A stretch of 61,509 nucleotides of DNA, counting the filler, from Hausera hauseri (lineage: Eukaryota), in assembly GCA_046269625.1 (NCBI GenBank). It is 11 parts of 11 records of this genome, joined end to end, with 100 filler letters (N's around TTAATTAATTAA, not from the genome) between each part and the next. Parts side by side here need not be neighbours in the genome. Positions count along the whole stretch, not along the records: positions 17,580 to 30,605 come from JBJURY010002236.1; 10 more parts are not named here. One strand, written 5' to 3'. Each line of letters begins with the position of its first letter. Positions within the stretch are counted from its first letter, which is position 1. Positions 1,487-53,974 of this stretch are shown piece by piece. The notes under the pieces are model-generated. The model saw nothing but the letters and a program-made list of their open reading frames with translations, made no database searches and was not told where the DNA came from. A program made the position numbers and the translations under genes.

Positions 1487-1822
1487 TAAAATTCCGACTA
1501 GCAGTAAGGTGCTCAGTACTCAACCTTCATACAGAATTAACACAATGGATTAAACTTCCCGACTGTTCAAACATTCATAAATCCCCCAGATATTCCCCGG
1601 CGCAGCACAGATGAAAAGTGCCAGACTTCTGTAAAGTGTAAATTCTACAAAAAAGCCGGTTGGCTGGACGCCGAATCAAGAATTCTAGAAAAAAGTAAAC
1701 AGAAAGAGTTTCTGCATTACTAGGAAATTGACAAAAGTTGACGAATATTGTACTTTATGTTACACTGTTCATATTGTAGTATATGCATTTTAATGTTGGA
1801 GTCACAACATTTATATTCCTAC

Positions 1823-3962
1823 CTTTAATATGAATGAATCTTCTGGCTGAAGACCAAGATTTTCAGTAGCGTTCTTTATTTCTGCTTCAAATTTTTGATT
1901 TCGCTGCCTAGGGACATTTAACTGAGGAAATAAATCACCAATCAATCCTAGGAATACTGGTGTATCATCGGTAATAATTTTTGGTGTGTTAAAGTCTCGT
2001 AAAGCTCTCATCAGAACGGAATCTTCACTCATTGACCTATCGCCCCTCTTCAATGATCCAGCAACAACTAACACAGATTTAATCGCACGTAAACCCCAGT
2101 CATAATGGTCTTGTTTCGATAATAACTCCTTGCATAACTGGTACAGTGTGATGAATTTTCTCGCCAACATTCTGGCATCCAAGAATCCTTCAGCAACCAA
2201 CATAATTTCGCAAATTAATTCAAAATCTGGTACAACCATAGCACATGGTCTGAAGAGCGCCTTCAGGTTTTCCGGCAATTCTGTACGTCCCGCATAACCG
2301 GGATTCATCGTGATGAATAGACCAACAGCTCGATTGAGCGGAATTACTTCTCCAAGAAAATTGAATTTCTCCTTTTTCAATCGAATCCCATCTTGAATAA
2401 CTTTAACCTGAACGGCAACAACCGACAGAACTTCAACGGAGATTCGATTAAATTCATCAAAGCATCCCCAACTGCCGGACTGAGCTAAGCCCTTATAAAT
2501 GTTCCCAATTGATTTGTAGTCCATTTGTTCAGAGCAGTTGAATACATATACCATTACGCCCATTGCTCTTCCGAGATCTTTTGTGGTTTCGGTTTTACCA
2601 GTTCCTGCTGGTCCAGCTGGTGCACCACTCATGCATAAATGTAGGGACTGCGTGAGAGTGATGTAGCACCGATCAGTAAGCGGCGTTATTACCAGTCTTG
2701 GTTGATTACCCAAATATTCATGAGCATACTGAAATTGGGCATCACAGATATTGGCAAAACAGTCTTTAATTTTATCATCCCACCGATGTCGCAACTGGGA
2801 TAACCACAGAAATCCCTGGGATGAATCGACTTTTTGTGCGATGAGTTTAGCAACCACATCCCGATTATGTACATCAATGGTACAAATAGTCATTATTTTT
2901 TGTCGATCTTCTGAATTGAGATCAGTGAGTAACATTTGAATGAGAGCACCGAGTTGGGCAATTTGCTTTTTATTATAATCCTTCATCGCATTTTCCAATC
3001 CCTCTTCCAATCGAGCAAATGCAATCTGAACTTCAGACGCCCAGCCAATTTGTGATCCAGTCAATGCAATCTGTGCCGGGTAATCAAACAGCCATTGATC
3101 CCTTGGTTTTTCTTCATACGTCACCACAGCATCTGCGAGAATGAGTCGCATTGTCAGTAACATTTGATCTAAAAGTTTATTCAACCACTCTTCAACTTGA
3201 CCCGATAGCGTTATTTGCTCGTAAAACTTGACCACTTCACTATCCTTCGCAATCATATGACTTGACACTTTTGGGTCGACCTTTTCGTCAAGGATCTTTA
3301 ATTTCCCGATACTGTCGAACAGCTTTGATAAGTGTTTCATAACTTTCAATGGAAACTTTCCATTACTTACTATGTCCATTAAATCAACTGACGAGACGAA
3401 ATAAAACCGAGGAAAAGCCAAACGTTTCGTTTCTAAGTACTTCGCTAGAGCCTTTTCACATAAAGTTAATTCATCTCGCAATAGAGTTATTTCTTTCATT
3501 AGCGTATCGCGTCCGGTGGATGCTTCAATAACTCTTGGGGTGTTTTCGAAATACTTTGCCATTTCTTTGAATTCGGCATCGACTTTGAAGAACCGTTCAG
3601 TATCTTCAGGTAATTGAACTCGAATATCATCGATCAGAACGAATATGGATTCTAAACACGACCAGCTTTGTTGAACTTCGAAGAACGACGTCAGAACGGA
3701 ATCAGTTTCGCAAGGTATGTCATACCAATAGTTAATTTGATATATAAAAAATGCATTGTCACTGTTACCAAGCATGTCCAAGACTTTAACTTGAGTTTCT
3801 CCCAGAATGGATGTTAAATCATCGCTAGCTTTTGGTAGTATAATTTCAGTTCGATCATGTTTATCATATTCGAATTGCAGATTTTCCCAAACATCGCGAA
3901 ATTTTTTCGAGTCTTTTTCGATTTTCTGTTTATTGCCGGCTTTGGAAACGACGCCTCTAACT
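1823..3962 (-). CDS. Internal exon of an axonemal dynein heavy chain (outer-arm beta type, DNAH9/11/17-like): linker plus AAA1
   Basis: Frame is open from the contig edge at 3962. Motifs: [20 protein letters not shown], Walker [48 protein letters not shown]. Ends at ...FILK followed by donor GTAGGA at 1822. The next exon is not seen in 1-1822. Confidence 0.95.
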
Positions 3963-4062
3963 NNNNNNNNNNNNNNNNNNNNNNNNNNNNNNNNNNNNNN
4001 NNNNNNTTAATTAATTAANNNNNNNNNNNNNNNNNNNNNNNNNNNNNNNNNNNNNNNNNNNN
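3963..4062. other. Artificial contig linker (N-run/TTAATTAATTAA/N-run); identical linkers at 9968-10067, 17480-17579, 30606-30705, 36324-36423, 40457-40556, 44787-44886, 49119-49218, 53191-53290, 57422-57521
   Basis: Ten identical 100-nt spacers with stop codons in all six frames. Confidence 0.99.
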
Positions 4063-4490
4063 GAACCAGAGCGACTGAACCAAAGGGACAGAACCAGAGA
4101 GACAGAACCAGAGAGACAGAACCAGAGCGACTGAACCAAAGGGACAGAACCAGAGAGACAGAACCAGAGAGACAGAACCAGAGAGACAGAACCAGAGAGA
4201 CAGAACTAGAGGGACAGAACCAGAGCTACTGAACCAGAGCGACTGAACCAGAGTGACTGAACCAGAGCTACTGAACTAGAGCTACTGAACCAGAGCGGCT
4301 GAACCAGAGCGACTGAACCAGAGCGACTGAACCAGAGCTATTGAACCAGAACTACTGAACCAGAACTACTGAACCAGAACTACTGAACCAGAGCTACTGA
4401 ACAAGAGCTACTGAACAAGAGCGAATGAACCAGAGTGACGGAACCAGAGTGACAGAACCATAATGACTGATCTAGAGCGACAGAACCATA
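4063..4490 (+). repeat. Minisatellite, ~14-bp unit GAACCAGAG(CGACT/AGACA/CTACT)
   Basis: About 30 tandem, gradually diverging copies starting at the contig edge. Confidence 0.95.
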
Positions 4491-4650
4491 TCAACATAAA
4501 AAGAGTGACCAAACCGGTGTGACTGAATCAGCGGGCCAGAAACAAAAAAACTGAACCTCACTATTTACCTCAGTAAATATAGTAGCTTTCTCAAATTATT
4601 GTTTGAAAGCATTCCCGTTTTGTGTGCTAACAATCACAGACAGTTGCTAA

Positions 4651-15712: not shown

Positions 15713-17579
15713 TACTTTATTATTTTGTTCTTTATTTTCTTTTTTGTTTCCTAATTCAACGTGTATTTTTTCAACAGTACTAAAGTAATTCCTATCATAA
15801 AATCTGTAAATGTACATTTGATTAATCACATTAACTAAATTTTCTATTAAAGGGCACACTGTTGTTATCATCAGTGCTATTGATGCTAGATATGCTTGAA
15901 ATTCAAAATTTCTTGCTTTTACAACTAAGTCATTCTTAATTGTCATTCCACCATCTTGACAACTCTGAAATTGATAATCCCTCAAAATTTTGCAACTGTG
16001 TTAATTGTTCCTCAACTTTGCAAAATTGTATAATATACACCATATACTTCCCATATAAATACAATTTTCAAGGGTCTAATGATCTTTGTTCTCAGCTGGG
16101 AGGGTGTGAATTTCTGTCATATCGTTTCTATCACGCTTTGCAAGAAGATTTAAAATATCCAAATTTGGTTCATTTTGCTGCAGATTGAACAAATTTATAA
16201 ATAAGTTGAATTTCGAATCCACAAACAATGGTGAAATGTGTCAGATTATTTTGAGACGACCGAAATATGGTTTGTCTGTTGATTAGTTCCACTTTTCTGT
16301 TAAAACCCGCCAAGAAAAATTTATTGCTGGAATGCTGTCTCAAAATTTATGTAACAAATATAATCGTAAATTTAAAAATATTGCATTTTTTGTAAACGTA
16401 ATATAAACATGTAATAATAAAACAAAACTTTAAAAATGCACACATATATCACTGTTATTTTTTTGGTGGGCCAATGTGAGCACCACACCACCCCCTTGCA
16501 AAGTCAGTTTTGCCAGGCGGGACCCAACGTGAGTCGTCTGGTGACCAAAACGTCGGTAGATTTTAACCATGAAGAATAAATACTTTCGGCAGGAATTGTT
16601 CGACTTCTCTCCAGTAGGACGAAGCAATGTTGAAGAAGCTCACACTAGCAACGCTGTATCTTTCGGTACCACCACGAGATGCAATGGACGTAGTTAAAAA
16701 CAGTGCACGGTCCTTTTTTTCCAATTGACTTGCAGATTTTGTGAATAACTATGTAATGAACTCTGGATATAGACCGTTACATGTTCCATAATTCCTCCTT
16801 GGATGAGCTTACAGTGTTTTGATCAAATCACATGGCGATTTCCGACTAGTATGTGCATTGGATCCTTCGATATCCCGACGGATATATTGAAGTAAGTACG
16901 ATGAGAATTGTCTGAACAATCATCGGTTTTTAGCATTTTATTCGGCGGTCAATCGAACATCGAATCGCTATCATCACAATCGGATTCACGAGAATATTTT
17001 GAGGAGAGTAGAAGAAAAATGAGAGTTATTCACAAATAACCTTCCCTACCCACTATTTAATTGAATTGTTGCGTTTAAACAAAAGTCAATTTCTCGATTA
17101 GCTGAATCGTTACGTGGATGAATCCAAAATTACTACTGATCCCGGATTGGGTGAATTCGTGATTATTTATTATTCCCACAAATGTCACATCAAATCAAGG
17201 TCATTTATGCATTATGAACAATGTATTTCAAAAAACAACAATTTTATTATTGTTTTTAAAATGTACTTGGCTGATGGTAATCATTCAGTCGCCATATATA
17301 TTGCGCTGCTCAAAGTTAAGTATTTAATTAAATTAAATGAATTTACAAATATTTTAAGAAACTGTTAAGAAAATGAAAGATAATTTCATTGAAATGAATG
17401 GCTATGAAATAGCTACTTCGGAATATGAAGCACCTGAACTAGTCCAATATCGTGCATACAGAAAATATTTTAAGATTTTNNNNNNNNNNNNNNNNNNNNN
17501 NNNNNNNNNNNNNNNNNNNNNNNTTAATTAATTAANNNNNNNNNNNNNNNNNNNNNNNNNNNNNNNNNNNNNNNNNNNN

Positions 17580-20500
17580 TTCGTCTGTTTGTAAATATTC
17601 AAAATACATTGCAGCGCCGTGAACTCCCATAATTTTCCCAACACAATGTTCGGTGTGTGCCTTTCTTATAGCTTCATCTTTGGTCTGTTCATTTGTGATT
17701 ATTGCTACTATCCGGTTTGTCTCGAGTGGTATAATCCCCACATTTACTAGATATTCTGGTTCGTCCAATATTCTACCTCTGAAATAGAGTCGGTAATTGA
17801 CTCCTTCTTTACCTTCTTTATTTATTATTTGTTGTTTTATGTCTCCAACAGTGGTATACGTAGTACATTCAAACTCCTCGTCGTCTATCCCTTCAGATGA
17901 TATCCTTACTTTTATTTGTGCTTCTGGTTTATTTTTCAATAATTTAGCGTACTCTTTTATCAAGAGTTTAGGCACGGCACTATACACAGTGTTCTCACTG
18001 GATAGTTTAGTCAAGGTTGGAATCAACTTCCTCAATTTTTCTTCACTTATGTTTATTCTCAACATGTTGCTCAGCTCTTTCTCAGTCATTATGGGATCTA
18101 GTAGCATTTGCACATCAAATTTTGTCTTTTGCGTATCAACAGGCGACTCGTGAATGTGTATTGGCGTTCTTGGGTTCTGTTCGGTTAAACCTTGGAGATA
18201 TTCATCCCATTCGTTTTCGTTCTCAATGTCTGGCACTTCCAAATTTGTTAACGCCGCTTGTCCTACTTGGACTCTTTCTCGTAATTTGCTTAATTGTGGT
18301 TGTAGTATTTTCATGACGGACACCCTAAATCCATCTCTGTTTCCGCAGGCTAGTTGTATCAGTTTAATTAGTCGACACGTTTCCTCTGGCTGTAACAAGG
18401 CCTTATCTTGGTAATTGGTCAGTTCCGCGATCCTATCAACTTGCCATTTCTGTACGAATTCTGCTTTATCGCTCAATTCTGTTTCTGTCAAAGAATATTT
18501 ATTTTTATAACTTTCTATTTCCCTCAGCAATTCATTTATTTTCAGCTGTCTTCTTTCAGAACGTAATCGGGTTTCTTTTATCAAACGTATGCGGTCGGTC
18601 AGACTTCTTGCTACTGTTTCATCAATTTCTGCCATTTCGGTTAATAGTAAGATTAATTTCTGGGTTTGATTAAGTATCTCGGCGTCTGGATCTATTGCGT
18701 CCATTAGTCTTCTTATTAATTTTACTTCTTCGCTAGTCAGCTGCAAATCGTTTAAGATTTCCGTTAATTCGGAATGACAAGATAAGTCATAACCTGGTGA
18801 CCATCCGACTGAGTTCTGTATATACTGTAATGTCTGTGCTATGGCAATCCGGTGATCCTTACACACTTCCAATGTTTCTATTTCCTGTATGGAAATTTCT
18901 TTTAGTGGTTTCTGTATCAAGTGCTGTATTCCTTCCCAACGAAGATTTGCTAAATTTCCTTGGAGATCATTTAGCTTATTCCTTTTCTTGTAGAAGTCTT
19001 TTTCTTCTATCATATCGTATATTTCTATCATCGTTGCTTGATCTCGAGCTTGGTTCATGAACCTGAGTTCTCGATATGATTCGAATTTACTTCGTAATTT
19101 CACTTCGTCCTGCATCGTACTGGTATCTAACAACATTTCTTCTAATTGATGTCTCATTATTGGTTCAATTACGGAAAATTCTCTTAACCTTTCTTTTATT
19201 ACTCCTACTATTAGGGGTAACAGATCGGTCCACTTCTGCAGTTGTTTGGTTATTAACGGTTTCGTATATATTATTTCATCTAATGCTTCAAGGGCTTCTC
19301 GTAATTTGTGGTCCGGTCCTCGGACAAATTCTATGATTTGTTTTATATAGTTAAATTCTTCCTTGTATTCTTCTAGCTCAAGCAAACAGGAACGTATTAC
19401 TCTCTGTACTTGTGTATTCTCGGAGTCGATTATGCCGATTCTTAAATCATTAATTTCTGCTCTCATTTCGTTTTCTCTTCTGATGCGTCTATGTAGATCC
19501 GGATATTTATGAGGCTTATCTTTGATTAAATTAAACATTTTTAATAAAAAGAAAATATCAGTTTGTTCTATATTCAGTATTCTTAAATCGACCTCAGTCA
19601 GTTCGTATGCGACTTTATTATGTAGATAAGAAATTATCGCTTTCTGCATCTCAGCCATCAATTCTTCTAAGTTCCGTCGTACTCGCTTTGATTTCGGATT
19701 CGCCTTTAATGTATCTATCAATCGTTGTGCTTGATTAACTTGATCGAGAAACGACTCGTTTTTATTCCACCATATTTTCGTAAAATCGATATTATTTGTG
19801 GTCCATAGTTCCAATTTATCTTGGCAATCTTTTATCATACCTTCCTGTATTTCCAACGATTCGCAAGATATGTCTTCTTCGCCTTTTTGTATACCAGTTC
19901 TAATCTTTTTATATAATTTTTCTATGAATTGTTGTTCTTTTTCGGAGATATCCAACTGCTTGTTCAGTTGTTGTAGTCTTTGTAAGTTTTGGGTTGCTTT
20001 TTGCGGATCGTCCAGAGTATCTGTTATTTTTGCTAGCTCTTGTGCATTTTTCCATGATTTTCTAATTTTTCCAAACTTCGTGGATTTCTCTTCCTTTGAT
20101 TCCTCTTCGCTAGATGGCAATGGACATATTTCATTGATTTTGTCGATATTTACGATACTTGTGGACTCTGGGACTATAATGGGAGTATTTAGCTCTGTCT
20201 CATCTCGTAAGTTGATAGTAAAGGCATCTTCTACTTCTACATCTTTCTTAACCGGAGATCGTGAACGTGTTCTTGACCTTCTCTTAAGAGAGGGGCTTCT
20301 ACCTCTATTCTTGGTTATTTTAAGTACTAACGGTCCGATGAATTCACTCTCGACTTCATCTGCTGTCTTCTCTTTAGTTGGCGTTACAATTTCAGTATCT
20401 GCATCCAAGTCTATACTCGGAGATGCTGTTGATTTTTCTTCTTTTGCTGGTTGATCTCTGCTTTTCTTTCTGGCCATATTAGTACCTCTGGGCGCTATAG

Positions 20501-21771
20501 CCTTTTCGTATTCCGTTTTTGGTTCTCTTAACCCGTGATAAACTTCTAATTGGTACAATTTCTCTTCATATTCCTGTCTGGCCTTAATTACTTGCGGATT
20601 ATTAGATTCACCCATATTTCTTACATATCGTCGTAAATCTTGCATTTCGATAATCATACTTATATCTCCTCGTTTTCCGTAAATCCCTTCTAGATTCTCT
20701 TTTATCATGCTTGTTTTACTGGTCTCGGCAAATGATACACTCCGCGGGTTAGGACATGATCTAGCTATATGTCCTTCTTTACCACACGAGTAACAAATCA
20801 GATTCCCATCGCGTCCGATTCTTTGTCTACCGTCTTCATTTACTGGTGATTTCGGTCTACCAGTATTTTTATTTTGAACTGACTTATCGATTCCATTATT
20901 TCGACTTTCATAATTCCGACTTCCTGTATGTCGATTCTTGTTATACCGGTCATTGCTTCTATCCGGATTATAACTTGTTTTACCATACATGTCTGTACTG
21001 TAACCCGTTTTATTATACATATTTCGATTATCGTTCCTGTTATCATATTTTGTATTACGATTGAAAGTATTTTGAGCTCTATTCTCATATCCTCGATCTC
21101 TATTATTGTCATTAAACCTTTTATTACTTCGGTTCCTATCTCTGTTATCACGGTCATTATTCCGTTCATATCTATCATTCTGTTTGGCATATCTGTCTAA
21201 TGCCATTTCTAAATTCTGAGCTAATTGCAATGCCGTTTCAAAATTATCTGGTCGAGCCAAAATTAGTTGCTTTACTAAATCTCTAGACCATATGCCGTTT
21301 ATTAACTGCGTTATCATCATGACATCTAAATCTAGTGGACTAGCCTTTTCTGCTGCTTCTCGTTCTTCATTTGTTTTTGCTTTTGCTGCATTAGCTATTC
21401 TCAACGTACTCACATAGCTATTAGCAAGTTTCTTAAGTGCGAATGCGAATTGGGAGACCGACTCACCCTTCTGCTGCGTTCTATTTTGGAAGGCCATCAA
21501 TTTCTGTTGAGGCGTAACTGTCGGTAACAATTTCCGATTTAAGGCTCCTACTACCGAAGACCATGACTTCTTTTCGTCATTAGTTAGTTCACTATAGGGA
21601 CAATCGTTTAATCATAACTTCTGGTGCGAGGCTGGCACCTTCTGCGTGCAGTTTATAAGTCCGTAAAAAGTCGTTTAATCCATCTGGATCTCCGTCGTAT
21701 GCGGGTAAGTTTAACGAGTCAAACGTAAATATATCAAGTTTCTGAGCTACTGCTGGGTTATCTGCTGCCAT
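17580..21771 (-). CDS. gag: Extended Gag: capsid-like domain, CCHC knuckle, RS patch, long helical region, ubiquitin-like domain; one frame break near 21595; open at the contig edge
   Basis: ATG at 21771 gives MAADNP..LPAYDGDPDGLNDFLRTY. The frame then shifts to YSELTNDEKKSW..RTQQKGESVSQFAFALKKLA (major-homology-like). CYSCGKEGHIARSC at 20754-20795. UBL at ~17695-17920. Confidence 0.9.
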
Positions 21772-22106: not shown

Positions 22107-22124
22107 GTCCTGCTAGGGTCGCCA
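22107..22124 (-). promoter_or_regulatory. Primer-binding site, tRNA-Arg-like
   Basis: Minus strand TGGCGACCCTAGCAGGAC lies 4 nt after the LTR-terminal CA. It is complementary to a tRNA 3' end GTCCTGCTAGGGTCGCCA; the Arg assignment is by resemblance to Arg tRNA 3' ends ending GGTCGCCA. Confidence 0.85.
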
Positions 22125-22128
22125 AATA

Positions 22129-22918
22129 TGTTGAGTTAGGGTGGCCCTTATCCGTCCCCACTATAACAATATTAACTTCAATTTATATTTTTGCTTCAAG
22201 AGCAGGTTAGGATTACTCGTTCTCGAGTAATCTGCTTGTGCCTTAGTATTTTAGAATAATTTGTGTCTAAGCAGGTACTGCGTGCACGAAAAACAATTGT
22301 CTTAATTTGAATTCTCTTGTCTTAACTATTTAAGTTTGAGTGAAATTTTAACTTAGGGTAGTCCAAATCAGCTTTAAGAGCCGATGAAGAAAACTATGTG
22401 ATTTTAAAAGAGAATACAATAATGATAACCTTTATTAACACCTTCTCAACAGTACGTATCGAATCACAACCAAAATGAAGTAAGTCAATTTTTTTGTTTT
22501 TTTGAATCTTTTCCGAATTCCGCAATACGAACCTAAGTCGTAATTTGTTATCAAGCTTGTCTAGCAATTTCGATTCTAAGTCGCTAAATTTTCAGCAGGT
22601 CAATGCGATCCTAAGTCGCAAAAATTTTTCTAATTTTGTCTTTTTTAGCTTCTGCTTATATAGTAGCAGCTTAGCCGTAATCATCGATTTATCTAGTTTA
22701 TTTACACAGATAACCGTTTTTTTGGCAATTACAACAGTTTTTCGGCAATTGATGTGACAGTTCCTTTATTTTTATCGCGACTACAATCTTTAAAAATTAT
22801 TTACTGGTGACTTCTGTAGGCGATTGATTATTGTCAATTCACGAATAGAAATTCTAAATATTTACATTATTTACTGGTGATTTCTGTGGGCGATTGATGG
22901 GCGATTGATTATTCTACA
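22129..22918 (-). repeat. Long terminal repeat (790 bp, TGTAG...CAACA)
   Basis: Bounded by PPT and PBS. TATATAAG at ~22655-22662 and AATAAA at 22431-22436 (minus strand). An internal direct repeat of ~35 bp lies at ~22797 and ~22867. Confidence 0.85.
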
Positions 22919-24029
22919 TTTCTCCTCCCTGAGCGGCATCCTCGAAGGAGCCTATTGCGTCAGAAGAGGTGGCGCCAATTGTTCTGGGGTCTCTTAATCG
23001 ATTCAGTCTTTCGTCTAGGTCAGATGGAGATTCTGGGCGTTCTTGGACTACTACAGGGTTTGTTTCTAAACTATAACTGAAATGGGGTCTTATTCTGACA
23101 ACTCGCGTATAGTTTCCGTTCGAATAATATTTAAGTTCCGTAGCTTCAGCTCGACATACTGGACAGGTGGTCTTTCCATTGTCTAGGGTCCATTTTTCGA
23201 GACAGTCTCTGCAATACTTATGTCGGCAATTTTTGTTATCTAGGATTACATATCCTTGTTGTAAGTCGGCCTCGCAAACAGGGCACTCATTTTCCTTTTT
23301 GCCCCAGTCGTCTCTATCCAAGTCCACCTGGATGATTAACTCGATTGGCTCAAATACGAGCCCGTCTTTGTCTTGGTATAGGTAACCATGAATTATCTTT
23401 TGTTTCGGATTAATAGAACTTTTTCTGGGGTCGCAATCAACTTGGATTAGGGTCCAGTCTGTTATAAGATCTTTGTCCAGATCAGGAATAGTTCCTTCCG
23501 TTTTGTATTTCTTATATTGTTTTTTTAGAAGTATTCGAATTTGTTTGTTCACTGGAACTATGATTTTTCCGGTTCTCTTCGACCTGAAGATTGAAGTGAG
23601 ATATGTTCCTATTTTATGATTTTCCCAAACGTAGGTGTTTTCGAACACTTCTCTGGCGGGGGCTAGTTTGATGAAGAAAGTCGCTTCTTTTATTAATTTT
23701 TTGCTATAATATTCGGTTATCACCAGCATCTTGGGAAACTCTTTATCAGTTTTGAAGTGAACATCCTTTTTACTATTTTTCTTTATTAAGGTATTTATCT
23801 CTGTTATTAAGGGATTTTTAAATCCCCTCTTTAATGGTTGGGTACTTTGGGAAGTGCTGGGTTGATCTGATTGGATTTCCGTGCTCTGTCCTCCGTCGAC
23901 TTTTCGTTTTTTGAATATATAGTCATATACAGATACTGTTTCCCTTGTTTTGGATTTCTCCTTAATTCCTGTTTTGTTGATTGATGCTTCCTGTTTTCTT
24001 TCTTTGGTGTGTTTTTCTGGGGCTTCCAT
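22914..24029 (-). CDS. RING-HC (C3HC4) finger protein, probably the C-terminal half of one accessory ORF
   Basis: CPVC...CRHKYCRDC..W..CPVCR at ~23150-23287. The frame is open upstream of the ATG to ~24123. The ORF reads through the PPT and stops 5 nt inside the LTR. Confidence 0.85.
   Translation of the reverse strand: MEAPEKHTKERKQEASINKTGIKEKSKTRETVSVYDYIFKKRKVDGGQSTEIQSDQPSTSQSTQPLKRGFKNPLITEINTLIKKNSKKDVHFKTDKEFPKMLVITEYYSKKLIKEATFFIKLAPAREVFENTYVWENHKIGTYLTSIFRSKRTGKIIVPVNKQIRILLKKQYKKYKTEGTIPDLDKDLITDWTLIQVDCDPRKSSINPKQKIIHGYLYQDKDGLVFEPIELIIQVDLDRDDWGKKENECPVCEADLQQGYVILDNKNCRHKYCRDCLEKWTLDNGKTTCPVCRAEATELKYYSNGNYTRVVRIRPHFSYSLETNPVVVQERPESPSDLDERLNRLRDPRTIGATSSDAIGSFEDAAQGGEM
22919..22931 (-). 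promoter_or_regulatory. Polypurine tract
   Basis: AGGGAGGAGAAA immediately before the LTR-initial TG. Confidence 0.8.
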
Positions 24030-24081
24030 CTTCTCTTGAGGAATTTCGGTTTCTTTACTTCTCGGTGTTCCTTTCTTATTT

Positions 24082-25329
24082 TCAAGTATTTTCCGGCACC
24101 GTGATTTGAAGGCTATGTTGCTCTATCAGCTGAACAGTCCGGAGTGGGGAATATGGTTTTATACCTGTTCTGTGTTTTCTGTTTATTTGTTCTGGTTCTA
24201 TTGAGTTGCATAACTTGTTCATGACATTTGTAGGGGTCCACTCATGTTCCCATTTTAATTTGACATAAATTTGTTGTAGGTATCTAGATCGTTGGCTCGC
24301 CGACAAGAGTCTAGGTATTTTACCTTGATTATCGATCATTGCTTCGATAGTCATTTTGAAGAAGGCTTCTGGCGCGGTGGTTATATTTTTCTCTTGCATT
24401 GTTTTTGCTACCTGTTTTCGTACTACTGGGTGATGAGCTATCTCCCTAAATCCGGCAATGTTTGCCTCGGATATTTCTAGTAGCTCTACCTCGCTTTGTA
24501 CATAGTATCCGGTTAACATACAACCGTATAGGCAGTGCTCCAATTCCGATCGTACTTGGTTGATGTCTCTTCCAGTTAATAGTTGTTCTTTTCTCAACCC
24601 CGTCTTCTCTGCATACGATTCTTGCACGTGTTTTCTGGGGTTAATGATAGTTGAATAAATTTCTGTTCCACTTCTTTCTCTTATAGAAACCTCTATAGGT
24701 ACTCCATATCCATCGTCTCCTCTTCCATAATTTATCGCCAAAATTCTTATATTTCGTCCGTCCTGGACTAATCTATAGGCTTGTTGGTGCTTGTCCTTTT
24801 CTTCTTCGGTTGGGATTTGTGAAAATTGCAATGCTGGCAAACCTAAGTTGCAGCTTTCCTTGCTGGTTATTTCGAACATCAACTTGACAGGTAATGCCGC
24901 TATCCGAAATTCTATTTCATAGTTGATAGATGCTAAACCCTGTCCACTAATTTTGAACGTGCTAAAACGATATTGGCGCCCTTCATTATTTTCCCACGGC
25001 TGGTTCTTGATCCTGTAATAAATCTCTCCATCTGCGAGATGTATAAATAGGTTTTCTACTCGGTTTATCTTATTATGGATTAGCTCTTTTAAATCGTATG
25101 ATTTGGCTTGGTGATTTTCTTTCATTGCATATAATAGGACAATTCGGCTTTCTTCTGTCGTTCCTTTTAAATCGTTTGGGATTTCGGTAACTTTTCGGTA
25201 TTCCAGGTACGTCTTTGCCTGTAATGCGTCGTTGATTCTCCTGTATAATCCTTTGGATTTTGGGATGAGGATGGTTCCATACTCCTGCAGGAAAGCGTCG
25301 ATCCTAGGTCGGCGGTTCGTACTTACCAT
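24082..25329 (-). CDS. Accessory ORF with a REX4/ISG20-like DEDDh exonuclease fold lacking the catalytic acidic residues
   Basis: ILAINYGRG..EVSI..SGTEIYSTIINP..V..Y..KTGLRKEQL..INQVRSELEHCLYGCMLTGYYVQSEVELL..FREIA follows the REX4 pattern ALDCEMVG..RVSIV..G.V.YD.YV.P..V.DYRT..SGI...L..F..V..EV..LL.G.ILVGH....D...L..RDT. Confidence 0.65.
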   Translation of the reverse strand: MVSTNRRPRIDAFLQEYGTILIPKSKGLYRRINDALQAKTYLEYRKVTEIPNDLKGTTEESRIVLLYAMKENHQAKSYDLKELIHNKINRVENLFIHLADGEIYYRIKNQPWENNEGRQYRFSTFKISGQGLASINYEIEFRIAALPVKLMFEITSKESCNLGLPALQFSQIPTEEEKDKHQQAYRLVQDGRNIRILAINYGRGDDGYGVPIEVSIRERSGTEIYSTIINPRKHVQESYAEKTGLRKEQLLTGRDINQVRSELEHCLYGCMLTGYYVQSEVELLEISEANIAGFREIAHHPVVRKQVAKTMQEKNITTAPEAFFKMTIEAMIDNQGKIPRLLSASQRSRYLQQIYVKLKWEHEWTPTNVMNKLCNSIEPEQINRKHRTGIKPYSPLRTVQLIEQHSLQITVPENT

Positions 25330-25475: not shown

Positions 25476-26880
25476 TTAATTCCCTTTCATTAACTTTATG
25501 GCGCTTAATACAACAGTTTTGGCAATTGATCGAAAAATCGCAATTATCATTATGAGAGCGAACACTGACATAGCAATAACCGATATTAGTGACATTGTTG
25601 TCCATTTAATCGAATTTTCTATTTTGGCGGTAGTTACTATCTCATCAGTCATTTTATCGTCTTTCGGTTGATGCTTTATAGAAATCTCGTTTAAAGTTCG
25701 TGCTACGAATACTACGCTTTGTTTATTCTTTGCTTTTATTTGTAATATATAATTCGTTTTGGGTTTTAATCTAATACATTTAGTCTGATAGCTGCCTTTC
25801 CGTAACTTTACTTTTTGGTTGTTGTATAGTGTTCGGCAGTTTATTTCTACTTCGTATTTGAGAGCTTCTTCTACGTTAAACGTTATCTCTTGTTGCTGTG
25901 CCTGATATTTTACTGGAATCATTTCAATTTTCTCTGATAGTTTCTCTGATAGTGAATCGGTTGTTCGGTGGAGTCCGGTAGGAGCTGGGGAAGTTATATT
26001 TATTTTCGTAATCGTAGTTTTGTTTAGTTTTGACATAGTCCCTTGGAATAAATTTTTCAATAAGTAGCTTCCTAAGAAGATACTTGGCTGATTAATTCTT
26101 GTTTCATACAAGTCTAATCGAATTCTATATCTCTGTGCTGGAGGCGTTTTACAACATCTATCGGGCCTTTCCGTGTTAATCTGACAGTATTGTTGTTTTA
26201 ATGTCGGTTTTCCTTCCTCAAAGAAGTTAACTGTGATTACTCGTGCTTTGATTAGTCGTCCTTTAGTGCTGATTTGAATACATTGATTCTTCCGGTTTTC
26301 TTCTACACTTGCTACGTTTTCTTCTAACATTCGTTTAAGTGGATCCATAGATTGGAATAGGTCTTCTAGCTTTGTATTTAGATAATCTCCATAGTTTCGT
26401 GGTAGTACTAAATATGAATTCAAGCTTATTTCCGCTTGTACTTTATCACAATTCGGTGGATATAATTGATATCGCATGGTATAATAATGTCCATATTTCA
26501 CGTTACAACAAATCGTATCATCTTCTGGCTCGAATCTACATTCGATTTCTTCATTGTTCGATATGTCACAGAGTAGTATCCTGGTTTGCTCTTTTCGTAA
26601 GTCTGGTAATCTAAATCCGACACATGGGGCTTCTGGTGAAAAGTAATCGATTGTTACGGCTCGTAAGAATTTTTCATCTCTTAGATCTATTTTCTTTTCG
26701 GGAAGCTTTTCTGGGGGCTTTAACCCATTTAACCCAATTTTTCTAATTCCGTATACATCACTTAACGAACTTTCATCAATCCACCATTGTGCTTGAGTCT
26801 TGGGCGTTAACACAGCAATTAATGATAAAGCTACTATGATTTGCGCATACGATACTGGTCTGGTGATAATTGATGAGGCC
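25476..26880 (-). other. Env-like segment of Pol: internal signal peptide, three FN3-like modules, C-terminal TM helix
   Basis: Signal YAQIIVALSLIAVLTPKTQA|QWW. Repeats CCNVKYGHYYTMRYQLY..ISLNSYL, CCKTPPAQRYRIRLDLY..IFLGSYL and CIRLKPKTNYILQIKAKN. Sequons NKT and NIT. TM SLISVIAMSVFALIMIIAIF. Confidence 0.7.
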
Positions 26881-29800
26881 TTATTTTTACGTGGTCTCAG
26901 ATTGTACTGTTTGATCGGTTTTATGTCCGTTTTAACTACTCTTTGCACTGACACAACTTCTTCCTTTCCATTTTTATTAACATATACTGTGGTTGGCGTT
27001 GTGCGGAGTACTTCATATGGTCCTCTTCCGGTACGTGTTAATTTTAAAGACGTACCCTTCTTTGCGACTGGATAATGTATATAAACCCATTTTCCTTTTT
27101 CCAGATCGTGAGGCTTGATCTTTTTATCGTATTGTTTCGTAAATTGTTCCTGATATTCTAGTGATAGTGTTTTCGCGACTTCCCAACATTTCTGTAGTCT
27201 CGTTTGCAGAACTTCCGCAAAGTTTTGCTCCAGATCTTCAAGATTCATTTCGTATGGTGTCATGCCTAAATCGGTAGGCAAGATTGCTTCTCGTCCGTAC
27301 ATCATAAAAAACGGTGTAAATCCTGTTGCTGGATGTGGGGTAGTATTAATTGCGAATTGAGTTCCTTCTAAAAATTCATCCCAATCTTTTTGATCCTTTG
27401 CTACTACCGTTGATAATATTCGAATAACTGTTGCATTCATTCGTTCTACCATTCCATTGCATTGAGGGTGATATGCAGTTGTCGTTAAACGTTCGATTTC
27501 AAATATTTTGGTGATCTTCTCAAATAATTCACTTGTAAAGTTTCTCCCTCTATCTGTTAGTATCTGTTCCGGCGGTCCGTATCTGCAAATAATTTTTCTT
27601 ACTACTGCATTGGCTAAAGTTTCTGCTTTTTGATCTATCAGTGGTACTAGTTCAACGAAATGCGTTAATCGGTCTACGCATGTTAGGATATATCTGTTTT
27701 CCTTATGTGTTTTAGGTAAGGGTCCCACTATATCCATTGACATAGCTTGCATTGGCCTGTCTGGCACATTTATAGGTTTTAATTCTGCTACATAGCCTTT
27801 TGATTTCTTTTGTTTGGTGGCACAAACTTCACAAGCTCCTACCCAATTCTTTACGTCAATGTAAATACTTGGCCAATAATATTTATTTAATATCCTTTCT
27901 AGCGTCTTTTTCCAAGACATATGTCCGGCTAAGTATGAATCGTGTTCTGCCATAAGCACTTCGGGTCGCAATCCCTTTGGAATAACTATCAGTCTCCGTC
28001 CTTTTCGTTCGTAGTATAAGACGTTATCTTGGTTTGTCGCGTGATATTTATGTCCGTGTTTTTGTAGGTGCTTTTTCAATTGTCGTCCTTTCTGTAGTTC
28101 ATCGTTTTGTACGAATTCAATAATTTGTTGAATAACTGCATCCTTAGCTTGTTCAGCTGTAATTCTAACTGTTTTGTCCAATATTAGAGTTCTCTGTCGT
28201 TCAACCAGCTGTTCGAGTTGCGGTTTCTTAAATACCGTGATCGCACTGGTTTTTGTTTTTAGTCTTGACAGTGCATCAGCATCCACGTGTTTGCTACCAG
28301 GTTTATACTGGAATTCAATATTATATCTTGAGATCTCTTCAATCCAACGGTTTAATCTACATGTCGGATTATTAGCCCGGCCTTTTAGTGTCGTAACTGC
28401 TTTGTGATCCGTTACTATGATTATCTTTTGTCCATAAACATAGACATTAAAATGTCGTAGCGCTTCTTTTACGGCCAACGTTTCCAATTCTGTAACTGAA
28501 TAATTCTTTTCTGCTTTCTTTAATGAACGTCCTCCGTAAGCTATTGGATGTTCTAATTCTTCGTCTTCGCGTTTTTGAGCTAACTCATACCCGATGCCTT
28601 CTTTGCTTGCATCCGTCTTAATAATAAATGGTAGGTTGAAGTCCGGGTACCTTAAGACTGGTTCGCTAGTTAAAATCCTTTTCATTTCGTCGAATGCCTT
28701 TTGTTCTGCTTCTGTCCATTTCCACTTAATTCCTTTTTTAAGCAATCGATATAGTGGGGCATTAATCTTTGAGTTGTCTGGTACGTAAGTGGCGTAATAT
28801 CCACATAATCCTAACCAGTGTCTCAATTCTTTTTGGTTCTGTGGTTCCATACAGTCCGATATTTTATTTAATAATGATTTATAAGGTTTCGATCCTCCTT
28901 CTCCAACTATGTGTCCAAGATACGACACTGCATTTTGTGCCCATTTACATTTCTTTGGATTTAGCTTTAATCCGGCTTGTTCTAGTCGCATAAGTGTGTC
29001 TTCAATATCTTTTAGATGTTCTTTTTCTGTTCTTGATGCTATCATCACGTCATCTAAATACGCAAATGCATGATCAAGTCCCATGAGCATTTTATTCATC
29101 ATTCTAGTAAAAATAGCTGGTCCTGTGGTGATACCAAAAGGCATAACATTAAATTCATATACACCATCGTGTGTTTTAAATGCCGTTTTATATCGATCTT
29201 CTTCTTCGATTTCCACCTGCCAATATCCCGATTGTAAGTCGAGAGTTGTAAACCATTTTGCTCCTGATAGTCTATCTAAAGCTTCCTTCACTGATGGTAA
29301 GGGAAATGAATCTTTCATCATTAGTGTGTTCAATGCTCGATAGTCTATACAAAACCTATGTTTCGTAGTTCCCTTCTTTTTAACCATAAGTATAGGTGAA
29401 TACCATGATCGGTAACTTGGTCGAATTATGTCGGCCTTTAATATTCGTTCGATTTCTTTAGTTATTTCTGGTCTCAGTGAATGAGGAGGTGGATACCACT
29501 TAGGCATCTTTTGTTCTTCTAGATCGATTTCGTCGTCTGAACCCGGTTTCTTTCTTAATGGTATCGCTAATTTTAAGGCTTTTGCTCTGCCGATGTCTTT
29601 TTCATTTTGTGCTATTATTGAACTGAATTTACATAGTAATTCATAGAATTTGCAGTATGCTTCTGGAGAAAATTTGGTTTCTACATGAGGCGGAAACTCG
29701 GCACACTTATATGGTTTTTCTTCCATTGTTATTGCGGATACTTGATAAGTCTGACCTAACGTAGTGTTAGCATATAACCTCGCTATCGTTGGTGCATTGT

Positions 29801-30605
29801 TCACTAGTCTGAAGGGTATGCGTCCTGTCACTACTCTGCAAAGAATATTACTAAACATGATGTTCGGATCGATATTCCCTTGAGGTTCAAAATATACTGG
29901 CAGATCATCATCTTGTCGAATTTGTGCGAAAATTATCATCTCCGTTCTAGGCGGGATGTCTTCATCCACTGGAATCCATACTTCACCCGATTTCCTTTCT
30001 TTTATTATTTTAGTTCCTTTTATCGGTTCTATCTCAATCAGTTTTCCATTGTGTAGGTCAATTGCCATACCTGGTATCTGTTTCAATATATCACATCCTA
30101 ATACTACATCGTCCGTTAGCTGATCCATTACGGCAAATTCATGTTGAAGGGCTTGGCCCATCATATAAACAGTAGGGGTCCACTTGAATTTCGGTTTCGA
30201 CACTTGTCCAAAAGCTCCTATGCTACCTGGGTCTGAAGATGATGGTGGACACAAATGCTTCCGTAATGTGGTTGGTATTGATTCGTTTTTTACAAATGAT
30301 TTTTCCGATTCTGTATCGATCAAAGCGTATACTTCCCAATCTTCGATATTGATTTTAGCAAAGGGTCTTCCTTCTGCTACTGTTCCGTAGCAATTCGATT
30401 CTACCTTTTTCCGTTTTATCGTAGAGACTCTATATCCGTTTATTGTTACTTCCGGTGGCAATGTAACGTTTTGTCTTAATTGTTCCAATTCTTCACTAGG
30501 GTATAATTCGTTATTTGTTATTTCAGTAACGCGATTATCGAGGAGTGGTTCTTGAGGCGGAACATTTAAGTTCGAGCGCATTCGTGGATTCTCCCAAATT
30601 GTCGT
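25476..30605 (-). CDS. pol: Pol polyprotein (PR, dUTPase-like spacer, RT, RNase H, IN) fused in frame to a type I membrane protein
   Basis: PR: LIDTES and VVLGCD. RT: RFCIDYRALN, LDLQSGYWQ, MPFG, YLDD. RNase H: TDAS, ELETLA, TDHKA, ADALSR. IN: H-x6-H..CEVC, MDIVGP, TDRG, NGMVERMN, GPY, YNLRPR. A ~465-aa extension follows without a stop. Confidence 0.95.
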   Translation of the reverse strand, partial: TTIWENPRMRSNLNVPPQEPLLDNRVTEITNNELYPSEELEQLRQNVTLPPEVTINGYRVSTIKRKKVESNCYGTVAEGRPFAKINIEDWEVYALIDTESEKSFVKNESIPTTLRKHLCPPSSSDPGSIGAFGQVSKPKFKWTPTVYMMGQALQHEFAVMDQLTDDVVLGCDILKQIPGMAIDLHNGKLIEIEPIKGTKIIKERKSGEVWIPVDEDIPPRTEMIIFAQIRQDDDLPVYFEPQGNIDPNIMFSNILCRVVTGRIPFRLVNNAPTIARLYANTTLGQTYQVSAITMEEKPYKCAEFPPHVETKFSPEAYCKFYELLCKFSSIIAQNEKDIGRAKALKLAIPLRKKPGSDDEIDLEEQKMPKWYPPPHSLRPEITKEIERILKADIIRPSYRSWYSPILMVKKKGTTKHRFCIDYRALNTLMMKDSFPLPSVKEALDRLSGAKWFTTLDLQSGYWQVEIEEEDRYKTAFKTHDGVYEFNVMPFGITTGPAIFTRMMNKMLMGLDHAFAYLDDVMIASRTEKEHLKDIEDTLMRLEQAGLKLNPKKCKWAQNAVSYLGHIVGEGGSKPYKSLLNKISDCMEPQNQKELRHWLGLCGYYATYVPDNSKINAPLYRLLKKGIKWKWTEAEQKAFDEMKRILTSEPVLRYPDFNLPFIIKTDASKEGIGYELAQKREDEELEHPIAYGGRSLKKAEKNYSVTELETLAVKEALRHFNVYVYGQKIIIVTDHKAVTTLKGRANNPTCRLNRWIEEISRYNIEFQYKPGSKHVDADALSRLKTKTSAITVFKKPQLEQLVERQRTLILDKTVRITAEQAKDAVIQQIIEFVQNDELQKGRQLKKHLQKHGHKYHATNQDNVLYYERKGRRLIVIPKGLRPEVLMAEHDSYLAGHMSWKKTLERILNKYYWPSIYIDVKNWVGACEVCATKQKKSKGYVAELKPINVPDRPMQAMSMDIVGPLPKTHKENRYILTCVDRLTHFVELVPLIDQKAETLANAVVRKIICRYGPPEQILTDRGRNFTSELFEKITKIFEIERLTTTAYHPQCNGMVERMNATVIRILSTVVAKDQKDWDEFLEGTQFAINTTPHPATGFTPFFMMYGREAILPTDLGMTPYEMNLEDLEQNFAEVLQTRLQKCWEVAKTLSLEYQEQFTKQYDKKIKPHDLEKGKWVYIHYPVAKKGTSLKLTRTGRGPYEVLRTTPTTVYVNKNGKEEVVSVQRVVKTDIKPIKQYNLRPRKNKASSIITRPVSYAQIIVALSLIAVLTPKTQAQWWIDESSLSDVYGIRKIGLNGLKPPEKLPEKKIDLRDEKFLRAVTIDYFSPEAPCVGFRLPDLRKEQTRILLCDISNNEEIECRFEPEDDTICCNVKYGHYYTMRYQLYPPNCDKVQAEISLNSYLVLPRNYGDYLNTKLEDLFQSMDPLKRMLEENVASVEENRKNQCIQISTKGRLIKARVITVNFFEEGKPTLKQQYCQINTERPDRCCKTPPAQRYRIRLDLYETRINQPSIFLGSYLLKNLFQGTMSKLNKTTITKINITSPAPTGLHRTTDSLSEKLSEKIEMIPVKYQAQQQEITFNVEEALKYEVEINCRTLYNNQKVKLRKGSYQTKCIRLKPKTNYILQIKAKNKQSVVFVARTLNEISIKHQPKDDKMTDEIVTTAKIENSIKWTTMSLISVIAMSVFALIMIIAIFRSIAKTVVLSAIKLMKGN

Positions 30606-30705: not shown

Positions 30706-33700
30706 AGGAAGAGGGCCAACGAGATCAACATGAACAGACTCGAAACGTGATGTGCAAGGGAAATGATATAGTGGTGGCTTCAGATGTTTGGTGGTTTTAA
30801 ATTTCTGGCAAGCCACGCACTCCTTAACCCACGCTTGCACATCAGAACGCATATTCGGCCATATTACTTGCCGGTGGAGTAAGCGAAAAGTTGCATTAGC
30901 GCCAGGATGGTGCAGTTAATGTACACTGTTAAACGCTTGCCGTTGTAAAGGTGGTGCGAGAATTATTATGGAAATACCTGGTTCGGAAATGTCTAAAGCC
31001 ACTCCGTTAACAGTTGTGTAAGACTTAAAAAAATTAAGCATGTCCTAAGGTGGCTGGTTCTGTTGGAGTTGTACGTGAGAGAAAATTGTTGAAAAATTAA
31101 TAGAACCAACCGCCCTAGATAGAAAATCGGCAACCAAATTATTAACCCCGTTAATATGTTTAAGGTCAAAGTTAAATGTTGACAAATATGATATCTGTCA
31201 TTCTTGGTATGAAGAAGGATGTTTCATAGGCATGATGTTTAGCAAGGACTTGTGATCGGCCTGTATAGTAAAACGGCGAGCGAAAAGTAGGTGGGAGAAA
31301 TGCTTTAAAGAGAGATCTATGACCAATAATTCTCGATCGAACGTTTAATATTGAGTTTCAGGGGATTCTACCCGCATCAGGCTTGGGAAAAGCAAGAATG
31401 TCGACGATCTTAATTCCTTCGCGTAGTTTATCAAACTTATCAACCAGATCAGGTGTCTACTGGATTGGCTAATGTTTTTGCCGCCGCCTAAGTAAGAAAA
31501 TGTTGCGGTATGTTCAAAGCAGTACGGCACATACTTGTGAATGAAGTGCAAAGTTCCCAAAAAGCTCCTCATTTCAGTTGTTGTTAGGGATAGTTGTATA
31601 CTATTGAGAGCTTCAACACGTTCTGGCTGAGGAGAATGACCATTTTCCGAAATTATGTCCGAGAAAGTTAATACGCTTTTGGAAGAAAGGATATTTCGTA
31701 AAATTAATTTGTAAATTATGGTGGTTGAGTCGTTAAAAAATAGAACAAAGGTGTTCCTCATGCTGTTTGGTTGAAGACAAAGCAATTAAGGTATCGTCGA
31801 TATATGGATGCACGAAACTAAAATCGGAAAGGATAGAATCAATGTGACGTTGGAAAGTCAGCGCAGCATTGCGTAAACCAAATGGTATATAAATGTATTC
31901 GTACAGACCCAAAGGTGTCGTAACGTCAGTTTTCTCAATGTCCTCGGGTGCTACAGAAATTTGATGATATGTCTTGGCTAAGTCCATGGTAGAATATACT
32001 GTAGTGAAATTAAGCCGGTACAGGATATCCTAAATTAATGGTAAAGGGTATGCGTCCGTAACAGTCAAAGTGTTTAGTTGACGGTAATCACCACAAGATC
32101 GGAAGGATCCATCCTTTTTTGGACAACGTGTAAAAGCGAAGACCACGGCGATTTAGATCTGCGTACAATACCGAAGCGTTCAAGGTTTAGAAATTTTGCT
32201 TCGACAGCTTACTTACGATGAGGTGACAATGGACGTACCTTTTGAAAAATAGGTCGTTGATGTTGTTTATGATGTGATAAAAAGTGCTGTTTGTAAGTGA
32301 AAAGGTTCGGTCCTTCTGAATTAAGTGGTGGCATGAAGTGTGTATGTATTGCCGTAGACTTGCACGCAATTGCGAGAAATTGGGTGATGTTGATTGTGTA
32401 GAGTCAATATGTGCAGAGACGAGTGATGTTTGCGAATTATTAAAATAAAATGGAATTTGATGTAGGGTAGTAGTATTAAAATAGTGTTTAAAGAGGTAAT
32501 TTTGTCTAGTGAATGTACTGAACCAACGGAATCGTAGTTGTCAAAACCAAATCTCAACTAAATATCGATATTATCATTAAAAATTTACGAAATGAAAAAT
32601 GCTCGTTGAAGAGATTTGGATTACTTACAGGATTTTTGAGTATAGGCTTCCGCGGAAAGATCGTTTGCACCTTAGCGGATATACAATTTATTCGGTCGGT
32701 AAGATATCCAGTAGTGTTACGTTTCAAACATTTTTGTTTGCAATCAACTAAAAGATATAGTAAGATAAAAAATCCGAACCTAGGACTGCTGCGCGGACAT
32801 TAGCGACGGTAAACGTCCAATGAAACTTTGACTGAAAGTTTGGTAAGGTGAACGACAATTTAGATGTACTCGAAAGGTCTAGAGGTTCTCCTGAAGCCGT
32901 AAATAACGATTTAGCTTTGAATGGTGAATTTTGTAGAGGGAAAGTGAGTGGTAGCAAAGAAACCGCAGCGCCTGTGTCGATAAGGAAATCTATGGGTTGA
33001 GCTGTTGGTGTGGTTATCGAAGCCTTTATTGTAAAGATTGCAAAAAAAGTGTGTCGGCAGGTAGTATTAGATTAGGTGCCTTTGCCAGACTCTGCTGTGA
33101 GTACTGGCAGCGAAATTAGTTTTTTGGATTGGTGACATTAACTGACTATTACTAGGGGAAATAGAACGTCTGTCCATAGTATGGTTAGCGTTATTCTTAT
33201 AGTTGCAGCCTGAAAGACATTTATGAGCGTGAAATCCAAATTTCGCATGGTAGATGCAAACAATCTTGTCTGAATATAAATTTGGAGTGTAATATCTACA
33301 CCATAAACAGCATTTCTTAACTTTATTGTGAAATTTGCTATGACAATAGCACACAAAAGATCATGTAGGCGATGGTGACCTGTTTTTGGAAACAGAACAA
33401 GTACGATTATAAATAGAAATACTTCGTCGTGGTAATGAAAGATTGTTCAACCTATTATTAATGTTATTTATTGTCTGTTGTAATGCTAAATTTTCAGCGC
33501 GTAATTGACTCAACTGTTGCTCTATTGTTGTGTTGAGTTGATTGTCGCTTGTTGTGACCGCTGCTGATACAATTGGTTGGGAATTCAATTGTAGCACTTC
33601 ATATGCTTTATCAGCCAATTCCGCCAATTTATCCAACTTCGTAGATTCCTCAACAACGGTAATGAGTGCCCTAATTTGTATAGGCAACGCGTTTAAGAAA

Positions 33701-34760
33701 TATCGTCGCAGAAAATCTGAATTATGCTGCCTAGTTACACAGCGTTTGTAGGTGAGCCAACGACGTACGTAGGAACTCAGAAGGTTTTTGTGTTCCCATG
33801 GCGTTATCATTAAAAAATCTATGGATTATGGAATCAATGGACGGTTCGGTAAGTTTTAAGACTGCGTTATAGAGATGTGTGTACGGGTCGGATTGTTGAA
33901 AAATGTCTAAAATGTTGTGAAGAGAAGTTTTAACTGTGTTTGCTAAGAGATAAAGCAAATTATAAGCTTTTTCTGAGGTATGAATAATGCTGTTAGGCTG
34001 CAGCTAAAGTTTGTAAAAGCTGAGCCAGGTTTTATTAGATTTTTAGTCATCGATAAAATACTCCGTGCACTGAAAGGAAGTGTGTTTGGCTAGAAGTATG
34101 GAGGATGTATAACTGGTGAAAGTAGATGGCGTGGTTACGGTCGTTGATTTCTGGTGGAAAGCAAAATGTGATGATTTAGAGGTAGTTTTGTCAGTGGCGT
34201 CAATTGCGGATGAAGAGTCCATTCTACCACGTATGCGCAAATGTACATGAATAATTAAGTGTTCGGTTGAAGGAGAAAAAAATTTGCAGTCATTGACATT
34301 AACCAATACTAGATTATTAATATTTAAGTAAAAGTCTGAAAGAGTATTAAAATGTTGTATAAATTTGTTTAAGTACAGTGTATCCATATGGTATGCTATG
34401 TCGTGCGTCAGTATTTGCGAGTTATTTATGAAAAAAGAAAACGAGAGGGATGTCACAGGCCCTAGTGGATGGTGTGGTGATGGAATGAACCATGTTGTGG
34501 GATCCACTGACATTGGACGGACGGTTGGGTAGTCGGTCACGCTGTGATTTGCTTGTAACTCAAGAGTATTGTTGCATGCATATGGACAGAAATCTGAACT
34601 ATCAAGGTAAATGGGCTGTAAAGGACTACCTGAACGGAGGGCAAAGTTTAAAAGGGGTAATATTGTGCCAAACATGTTGAGAACAAAAATATGAGAGAAA
34701 AAGGAAAAAGGAATCGTTAATAATAAGAAAATTAAAATAGTTGCCTGAAAAATAGAACGC
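30706..34760 (-). mobile_element. Decayed Ty3/Gypsy element (family B, copy 1): gag, PR, RT, RH, IN
   Basis: Gag DPY..L..MGTQKPSEFLR and two CxxH..F..A.KC motifs; PR FLIDTGAAVS; RT DLAKTYHQI, PFGLRNA, YIDD; IN HPG..CVACQ and VHVDLVGPLP. Many frameshifts. Confidence 0.9.
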
Positions 34761-44786: not shown

Positions 44787-44899
44787 NNNNNNNNNNNNNN
44801 NNNNNNNNNNNNNNNNNNNNNNNNNNNNNNTTAATTAATTAANNNNNNNNNNNNNNNNNNNNNNNNNNNNNNNNNNNNNNNNNNNNTAATTTTATAACC

Positions 44900-48375: not shown

Positions 48376-48559
48376 AGCACACACATGAATTCGGTGCGGA
48401 CAGATGCAGACAGATCAAAGTGACCCATGTACTGTGACAATTCATTGTGATCTGTATTTTATTTAAATAATGTACATTGTTTGTTGATTTTGCCTTTTGT
48501 TTTATTACCATTTAATTTATCTATACATTTCCATATTTAACTAAGTGTGACGAGAAACA

Positions 48560-52515: not shown

Positions 52516-52606
52516 CTGAAGAGGACCGATTGTTCATTCTCTATTTGGCCCTGAAGAGGACCGTATAACTTTCACATCTGTACATCTATACAAAATATTT
52601 ACAGTT

Positions 52607-53190: not shown

Positions 53191-53422
53191 NNNNNNNNNN
53201 NNNNNNNNNNNNNNNNNNNNNNNNNNNNNNNNNNTTAATTAATTAANNNNNNNNNNNNNNNNNNNNNNNNNNNNNNNNNNNNNNNNNNNNCCGATTTGGT
53301 GTGTAGCTGAAGCACATTTTAATTATAAATAAATTTTGTTGTTGTTGTTGTTGTTGTTTTACCGATCTTCTTCTTTCATCAACCCAATTAACGTGTAATT
53401 TTAAAAAATAGGCACAAGAATA

Positions 53423-53880: not shown

Positions 53881-53974
53881 CCTATGTTTAAATATTGTGA
53901 TGATAATAATAATAATAGTTAATTGTTTTGTTTGTGTTATAAACAAAAAATGATTTTTGTACCAGCGATAAGTA

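Follow-up and report, generated by a model that had tools for sequence, protein, structure and literature searches.

The closest published counterparts of the ubiquitin-like domain (UBL) considered here are found in the giant gypsy-like LTR elements Burro and GYPSM1. As far as the accessible part of their description goes (PMC6431247), these share with the element below a Gag CCHC knuckle, a long Smc-like (coiled) region and a Ubi2/SUMO-like domain, which in planarian Burro lies between Gag and protease and is followed by BCL2-like and Env domains. Burro's own features are this BCL2-like and Env stretch between UBL and protease, MATH, BIR and ankyrin domains, and an ORF of ~5,000 aa; with its MATH, BIR and BCL2-like cargo, it is proposed by its authors to meddle in host ubiquitination and apoptosis. 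A UBL in a giant gypsy polyprotein is already a known kind of feature; the accessory set here differs. Beyond that paper, the literature search found no report of a module of helices plus UBL, its scope ending short of subscription papers, Repbase reports and bioRxiv supplements.

Other described systems touch on parts of the element. Errantiviruses with the order GAG-ENV-POL and an HSV/gB-type Env are reported from Platyhelminthes, Nematoda and Bryozoa (PMC13524379, seen in part); the word "ubiquitin" is absent from the main text and the seven readable supplements of that paper. Bdelloid LTR elements resemble ours in having an extra nuclease-like ORF behind pol (a DEDDy ORF3) but differ in that the accessible text of their description makes no mention of ubiquitin or RING (PMC5408684).

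The window, that is, the whole stretch analysed, comprises 61,509 nucleotides (filler included) of the Hausera hauseri assembly GCA_046269625.1, as contigs joined via N-linkers. The UBL lies near one end of a 13,026-bp contig (17580-30605, JBJURY010002236.1), all of whose ORFs are on the minus strand. Read along that strand, Pol and its in-frame membrane tail come first; the nuclease-like ORF and the RING ORF follow, then polypurine tract, LTR, primer-binding site and finally Gag:

26859..30605, minus strand: Pol, with retropepsin, RT, RNase H and integrase; truncated at its start by the gap at 30606
30374-30075, minus strand: retropepsin, the canonical catalytic motif being absent in this copy
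25476..26858, minus strand: in-frame tail after the integrase; by hydropathy, a signal-like stretch, an ectodomain and a C-terminal transmembrane segment
24082..25329, minus strand: ORF3, weakly DEDD-exonuclease-like (ISG20L2, E 0.15; Pfam gave nothing notable)
22914..24029, minus strand: ORF4, with a RING finger at 23291-23151 (zf-RING_2, E 3.4e-9)
22919..22930, minus strand: polypurine tract, abutting the LTR
22129..22918, minus strand: single LTR of ~790 bp, TG...CA, in the middle of the contig; a contig of a public run starts exactly at 22918
22107..22124, minus strand: likely primer-binding site, starting TGG 4 nt after the LTR
21592..21771, minus strand: N-terminal piece of Gag in a different frame, by eye like the starts of P0004, P0006 and P0007
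17580..21611, minus strand: enlarged Gag frame, 1,344 aa visible, with the C-terminal part of capsid, a CCHC knuckle, a spacer of ~880 aa and the helix-plus-UBL module
20748..20795, minus strand: CCHC zinc knuckle, Gag aa 273-288 (zf-CCHC, E 3.4e-6)
17928..18101, minus strand: three-helix segment, Gag aa 1171-1228, conserved jointly with the UBL as one module
17691..17915, minus strand: UBL, predicted beta-grasp, Gag aa 1233-1307, no GG; the ubiquitin L8/I44/V70 positions read E/Y/I
17580..17690, minus strand: the last 37 visible residues, between the UBL and the assembly gap (17480-17579); the ORF end lies beyond the assembly

A single LTR in mid-contig means that the contig is circularly permuted, and the positions of LTR, primer-binding site and polypurine tract give the order gag, then pol. 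Pol has the order PR-RT-RH-INT, and the one TG..CA LTR is flanked by primer-binding site and polypurine tract; the element is a multicopy Ty3/gypsy LTR retrotransposon, assembled as a collapsed, permuted contig with its opening between gag and pol. The PR-RT interval of Pol holds an insert of ~90 aa, common to other Pols, where a dUTPase-like domain was sought and no Pfam match was seen. Near 21600 there is either a break in this copy or a mis-assembly, and the copy's lesions include the Gag frame break and the non-canonical protease motif; because it is damaged, function is read from the family rather than from this copy.

The tail after the integrase has no significant family match, and the Atlas gave nothing usable for it; it is possibly a non-Env cell-contact protein. 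The same layout follows the integrase in P0018 (by hydropathy) and P0021 (by eye), and the Pol of P0021 also has extra retropepsin domains and ankyrin repeats there. In ORF3 the catalytic residues of the acidic motif look replaced (by eye). The nuclease-like ORF is followed directly by the RING ORF in a different frame (22914-25329, minus strand), and seven of eight listed sister differences in ORF4 are synonymous. Elsewhere in the window are two decayed gypsy elements that belong to a different family and lack the helix-plus-UBL module (31345-33825 and 42056-44834), and several decayed copies, 75-90% identical, spread across contigs (45023-57419 and ~13900), which we take to be remnants resembling Polinton/Maverick DNA polymerase. 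The segment at 1811-4006 (minus strand) is presumably a fragment of a dynein heavy-chain-like host gene; a 14-bp tandem array lies beside it at ~3993-4613.

The first-pass annotation reported a ubiquitin-aligned peptide in Gag, and this was recovered on the minus strand, in ORF 21611-17580, the same frame as the CCHC knuckle. Pfam ubiquitin (PF00240) matches with E 3.1e-5 and 24.1 bits, 1.3 bits short of the gathering score of 25.4; the second Pfam match is Rad60-SLD_2 (E 2.5e-4). An AlphaFold model built on a 6-row alignment (window and five relatives) has three helices followed by a beta-grasp fold, with a mean pLDDT of 59.5, and 63-74 across most of the UBL. Foldseek returned 91 matches to this model at E<=0.001; all 47 listed are ubiquitin-fold proteins, including ubiquitin, SUMO, ISG15 and ubiquilin domains. 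The best VIA structural match has Z 9.6 and an rmsd of 2.3 A over 77 aligned residues. A single-sequence model (pLDDT 38.9; no Foldseek match at E<=0.001) was set aside. No GG was found across the whole visible Gag frame, nor after the UBL in the relatives. With a beta-grasp predicted, no GG and the domain kept in sister copies (below), the proposal of an integral, non-conjugatable UBL holds: the modelled domain is real, and lacking a GG it is not a conjugatable (type I) modifier. The structural register is ungapped over ubiquitin 1-61 and agrees with the sequence alignment in placing L8 at E1240 and I44 at Y1276, ubiquitin residues 1-19 being numbered in the usual way.

The domain had also been described as the last ~115 aa of Gag. 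This needs amending, as the frame is cut by the gap and the conserved unit begins ~60 aa earlier: by sequence comparison, the UBL is half of a module of ~140 aa, three helices plus UBL, common to three distant Gag lineages. The last 444 aa of Gag, searched against 1.84 billion proteins, gave six matches: three were multi-ubiquitin proteins, one aligned with the spacer, and the other two were Gags (P0004 and P0006) aligned across helices and UBL. A profile search then gave three matches among 7,991 candidates, two of them the profile's own members and the third, P0007, a gain (cluster: five members). A profile made from the three relatives only scores the window module at 52.8 bits, with 18.7 for the helices and 24.6 for the UBL; generic ubiquitin-repeat proteins reach 5.8 bits at most, and the top score among 500 shuffles is 5.6. 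This margin over the controls, with both halves scoring separately, argues for an inherited helix-plus-UBL module rather than a fresh capture of ubiquitin.

Identity among the relatives is 53-57% in the helices and 45-51% in the UBL; to the window it is 22-29% and 21-23%, respectively. Nine of the 17 invariant columns of the module alignment fall in the helices, and the invariant UBL residues are mostly in D-x-x-E and G-x-x-P stretches, off the I44 face. At the I44 position the three relatives have hydrophobic residues (L, V, V), and at the L8 position P; only four lineages, window included, are sampled here. Against the PDB, the family profile matches ubiquilin UBLs best (E 9e-6 to 2e-4), then ISG15, the ubiquilin match being weak, with a slim lead over ISG15 and SUMO. 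Between knuckle and module (18102-20700, minus strand), the spacer is ~880 aa here and 112-257 aa in the relatives; it is low-complexity, then E/L/K-rich, without a Pfam match, and P0001, a 150-aa relative without a known family, matches Gag aa 987-1136.

Other searches added no further lineage. A word-based search with Gag 1000-1344 found no match among 5,516 candidates; among viral contigs, 0 of 16 stretches were confirmed, and among metagenome contigs 1 of 141, which was P0004's own contig. The Atlas search with the module gave only sub-0.9 leads to ubiquitin-type clusters, and no RNA data set carrying the element family was listed.

What follows the module varies among the relatives. In P0009 a class III fusion glycoprotein (E 1e-50) lies in frame ~290 residues past it; in L001 such a glycoprotein follows a stop, in the same frame; and P0006 has 230 residues without a known domain. 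Helical segments between UBL and Env, P0004 aa ~840-985 and P0009 aa ~780-930, have by eye BH1-/BH2-like words and are what we take to be Bcl-2-fold-like; whole-protein scans of the relatives gave no BCL2 match. The layout of the two relatives with downstream sequence, Gag-UBL-(Bcl2)-Env-Pol, is the one published for planarian Burro. P0009 and L001 also share the order of the GAG-ENV-POL errantiviruses, and their Env by eye resembles the Smed_errantivirus_1/2 rows (PMC13524379, accessible part); the window element differs in having no gB-type Env in its assembled part. As in Burro, its UBL lies between Gag knuckle and protease; it differs in having one visible knuckle, an assembly gap for a UBL-protease interval, a membrane tail after the integrase, a nuclease-like ORF and a RING ORF. 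It may belong with the Burro-like lineage, judged by comparison with the published description of Burro.

Sister copies come from two public runs, of which X1 is possibly from the source organism and so not independent support. On the 366-base region lie 583 and 80 run contigs, covering 29 of 29 bins in each run, with no indels listed in either. Lack of a predicted beta-grasp, or absence from sister copies, had been named as grounds for dismissing the UBL; the fold is predicted, and the domain is retained. Inside the region, five joints of low depth (3-11) leave out 68-148 nt; they were not taken as UBL-less copies. There are 56 differing places; 28 of the 40 listed are at third codon positions, and 26 of the 40 are synonymous if each is considered alone, where 28% would be expected (p 2e-6). 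One listed difference is a stop if taken singly; its codon is shared with a second difference, and it was counted as non-synonymous. Inside the UBL, 20 of 32 listed differences are synonymous, for a dN/dS of ~0.2, rough since the listing favours well-supported places. Judged by these codon patterns, the helix-plus-UBL unit is under purifying selection.

This synonymous excess bears on one explanation, that the UBL is a recently captured host ubiquitin fragment carried as a passenger without function. The further lesions of this copy would fit it, but the excess among sister copies does not, nor does a module orthologous across Gags only 21-29% identical; together with the relatives-only profile scores, the excess largely refutes the idea, which we find hardly credible.

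The UBL was initially placed just upstream of the aspartic protease, in a layout recalling the UBL-RVP order of Ddi1/DDI2, cellular proteins which likewise combine a UBL with a retropepsin-fold protease. The assembly does not bear this out. Between UBL and N gap the Gag frame has 37 residues, and at the opposite contig end (30605) another 77 stand ahead of the protease, a distance of at least 37+77 residues if the ends are joined; these ends do not overlap, and none of the joints listed (15 of 71) links end to end. In Ddi1, a helical domain sits between UBL and protease (PMC5028754, accessible part), whereas here the helices precede the UBL and any adjacency lies beyond the assembly. The window protease matches RVP (PF00077, 22.5 bits) and not Asp_protease, and no Ddi1 chain was matched in the PDB at E<=10 by the region before it. 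A protease follows the UBL within the same ORF in none of the three relative lineages, two of which have the fusion glycoprotein next, and 0 of 20 Pol relatives carry the module, a weak test as many start at or after the protease. One might still suppose that the Bcl2-Env cassette has been lost and that the UBL, at least ~115 residues ahead of the retropepsin on a single polypeptide, steers the protease to ubiquitinated targets or the proteasome. The membrane protein here comes after the integrase, so the intervening Env of the relatives may indeed be absent, and the minimum spacer would allow it. A retroelement protease normally excises itself from its polyprotein, and with the points above this makes such steering quite unlikely. 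The bolder version, in which deletion of the cassette leaves a UBL-protease product, a retroelement Ddi1 that with the element's own RING ligase tags and cuts host restriction factors, is a long shot; if true, the element would carry a self-encoded ubiquitin-directed proteolysis kit, and would be a living model for the origin of Ddi1 from a gypsy polyprotein.

A role in budding had also been suggested, with the UBL mimicking ubiquitin on Gag, recruiting ESCRT (Tsg101, ALIX, STAM) and replacing a late domain. The precedent stands: ubiquitin without GG, fused to Gag, restores budding, according to the accessible part of PMC2958808, and membrane proteins are encoded by the element and its relatives. 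The same rescue required L8 and I44, however, and since these positions read E1240 and Y1276 here (with P at the L8 position of three relatives), the hydrophobic patch of a ubiquitin mimic is missing and late-domain substitution is unlikely. The UBL is, besides, internal, with 230-290 residues following in uncut relatives, and two late-domain-like peptides occur in the element itself, both ALIX-type look-alikes: YPDL at Gag aa 703 (19494-19505, minus strand; exact motif in 0.7% of shuffles) and LYPx3L at Pol aa 34-40 (30486-30506, minus strand), ~40 aa before the protease (0.04% of shuffles). These were spotted post hoc, and some late motif occurs in 23% of shuffles. We consider a budding role distinctly improbable.

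Two readings remain in which the module acts as such. In the one we tentatively prefer, at somewhat less than an even chance, the GG-less UBL and its three helices serve, unconjugated, as a docking module for the ubiquitin-proteasome system of the host. Presumably inherited from a lineage of giant, Burro-like Gag-UBL-Env-Pol elements, the module would be made at roughly Gag-level amounts, and be either kept attached or freed by the element's protease. Like the UBLs of shuttle factors, it would bind receptors on the proteasome or enzymes of the ubiquitin pathway, and this binding may compete with Gag/Gag-Pol turnover, or help other cargo, here the RING protein, to redirect degradation. The suggestion is drawn from the ubiquilin-leaning profile matches, the RING gene in the element and the ubiquitin/apoptosis cargo of Burro. 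The predicted fold, the synonymous excess, the shared ancestry of the module and the hydrophobic I44 position in the relatives count for it as well. Like ubiquilin UBLs, the best PDB matches of the family, this one is GG-less and integral; unlike ubiquilins, the window element has no UBA or STI1 domains, its patch is atypical (E/Y/I for L8/I44/V70), and the margin over ISG15/SUMO is thin. The atypical patch and weak ubiquilin match count against docking, as do the nine invariant columns in the helices, which may point to a self-contained structural unit. A predicted complex of module and RING, at 0.02, speaks neither for nor against it. Host pressure of the kind supposed does exist in at least one system, given that the gypsy-derived PEG10 gag-pol is sent to the proteasome for degradation by the shuttle factor UBQLN2 (PMC10076021, accessible part). 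The other reading, unlikely yet carrying real weight, is that helices and UBL form a structural or assembly module (a spacer, an oligomerisation domain or a folding aid between capsid and cargo) with no partner in the host ubiquitin system. Helices conserved at least as well as the UBL would suit this, as would invariant UBL residues that mostly avoid the I44 face. What it fits less well is a hydrophobic or aromatic residue at the I44 position in four of four lineages, and the company the module keeps, ubiquitin/apoptosis cargo in each case: RING here; MATH, BIR and BCL2 in Burro (PMC6431247, accessible part).

This copy adds to the known giant elements a module boundary (~140 aa, three helices plus UBL), purifying selection and a different accessory set, and the unit persists in elements whose envelope arrangements differ. 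Earlier records of UBLs in giant gypsy polyproteins are profile hits, with no functional test among the literature found; as a small expressible domain, the module would offer a way to ask whether retrotransposons, like viruses, counteract proteasomal control by the host.
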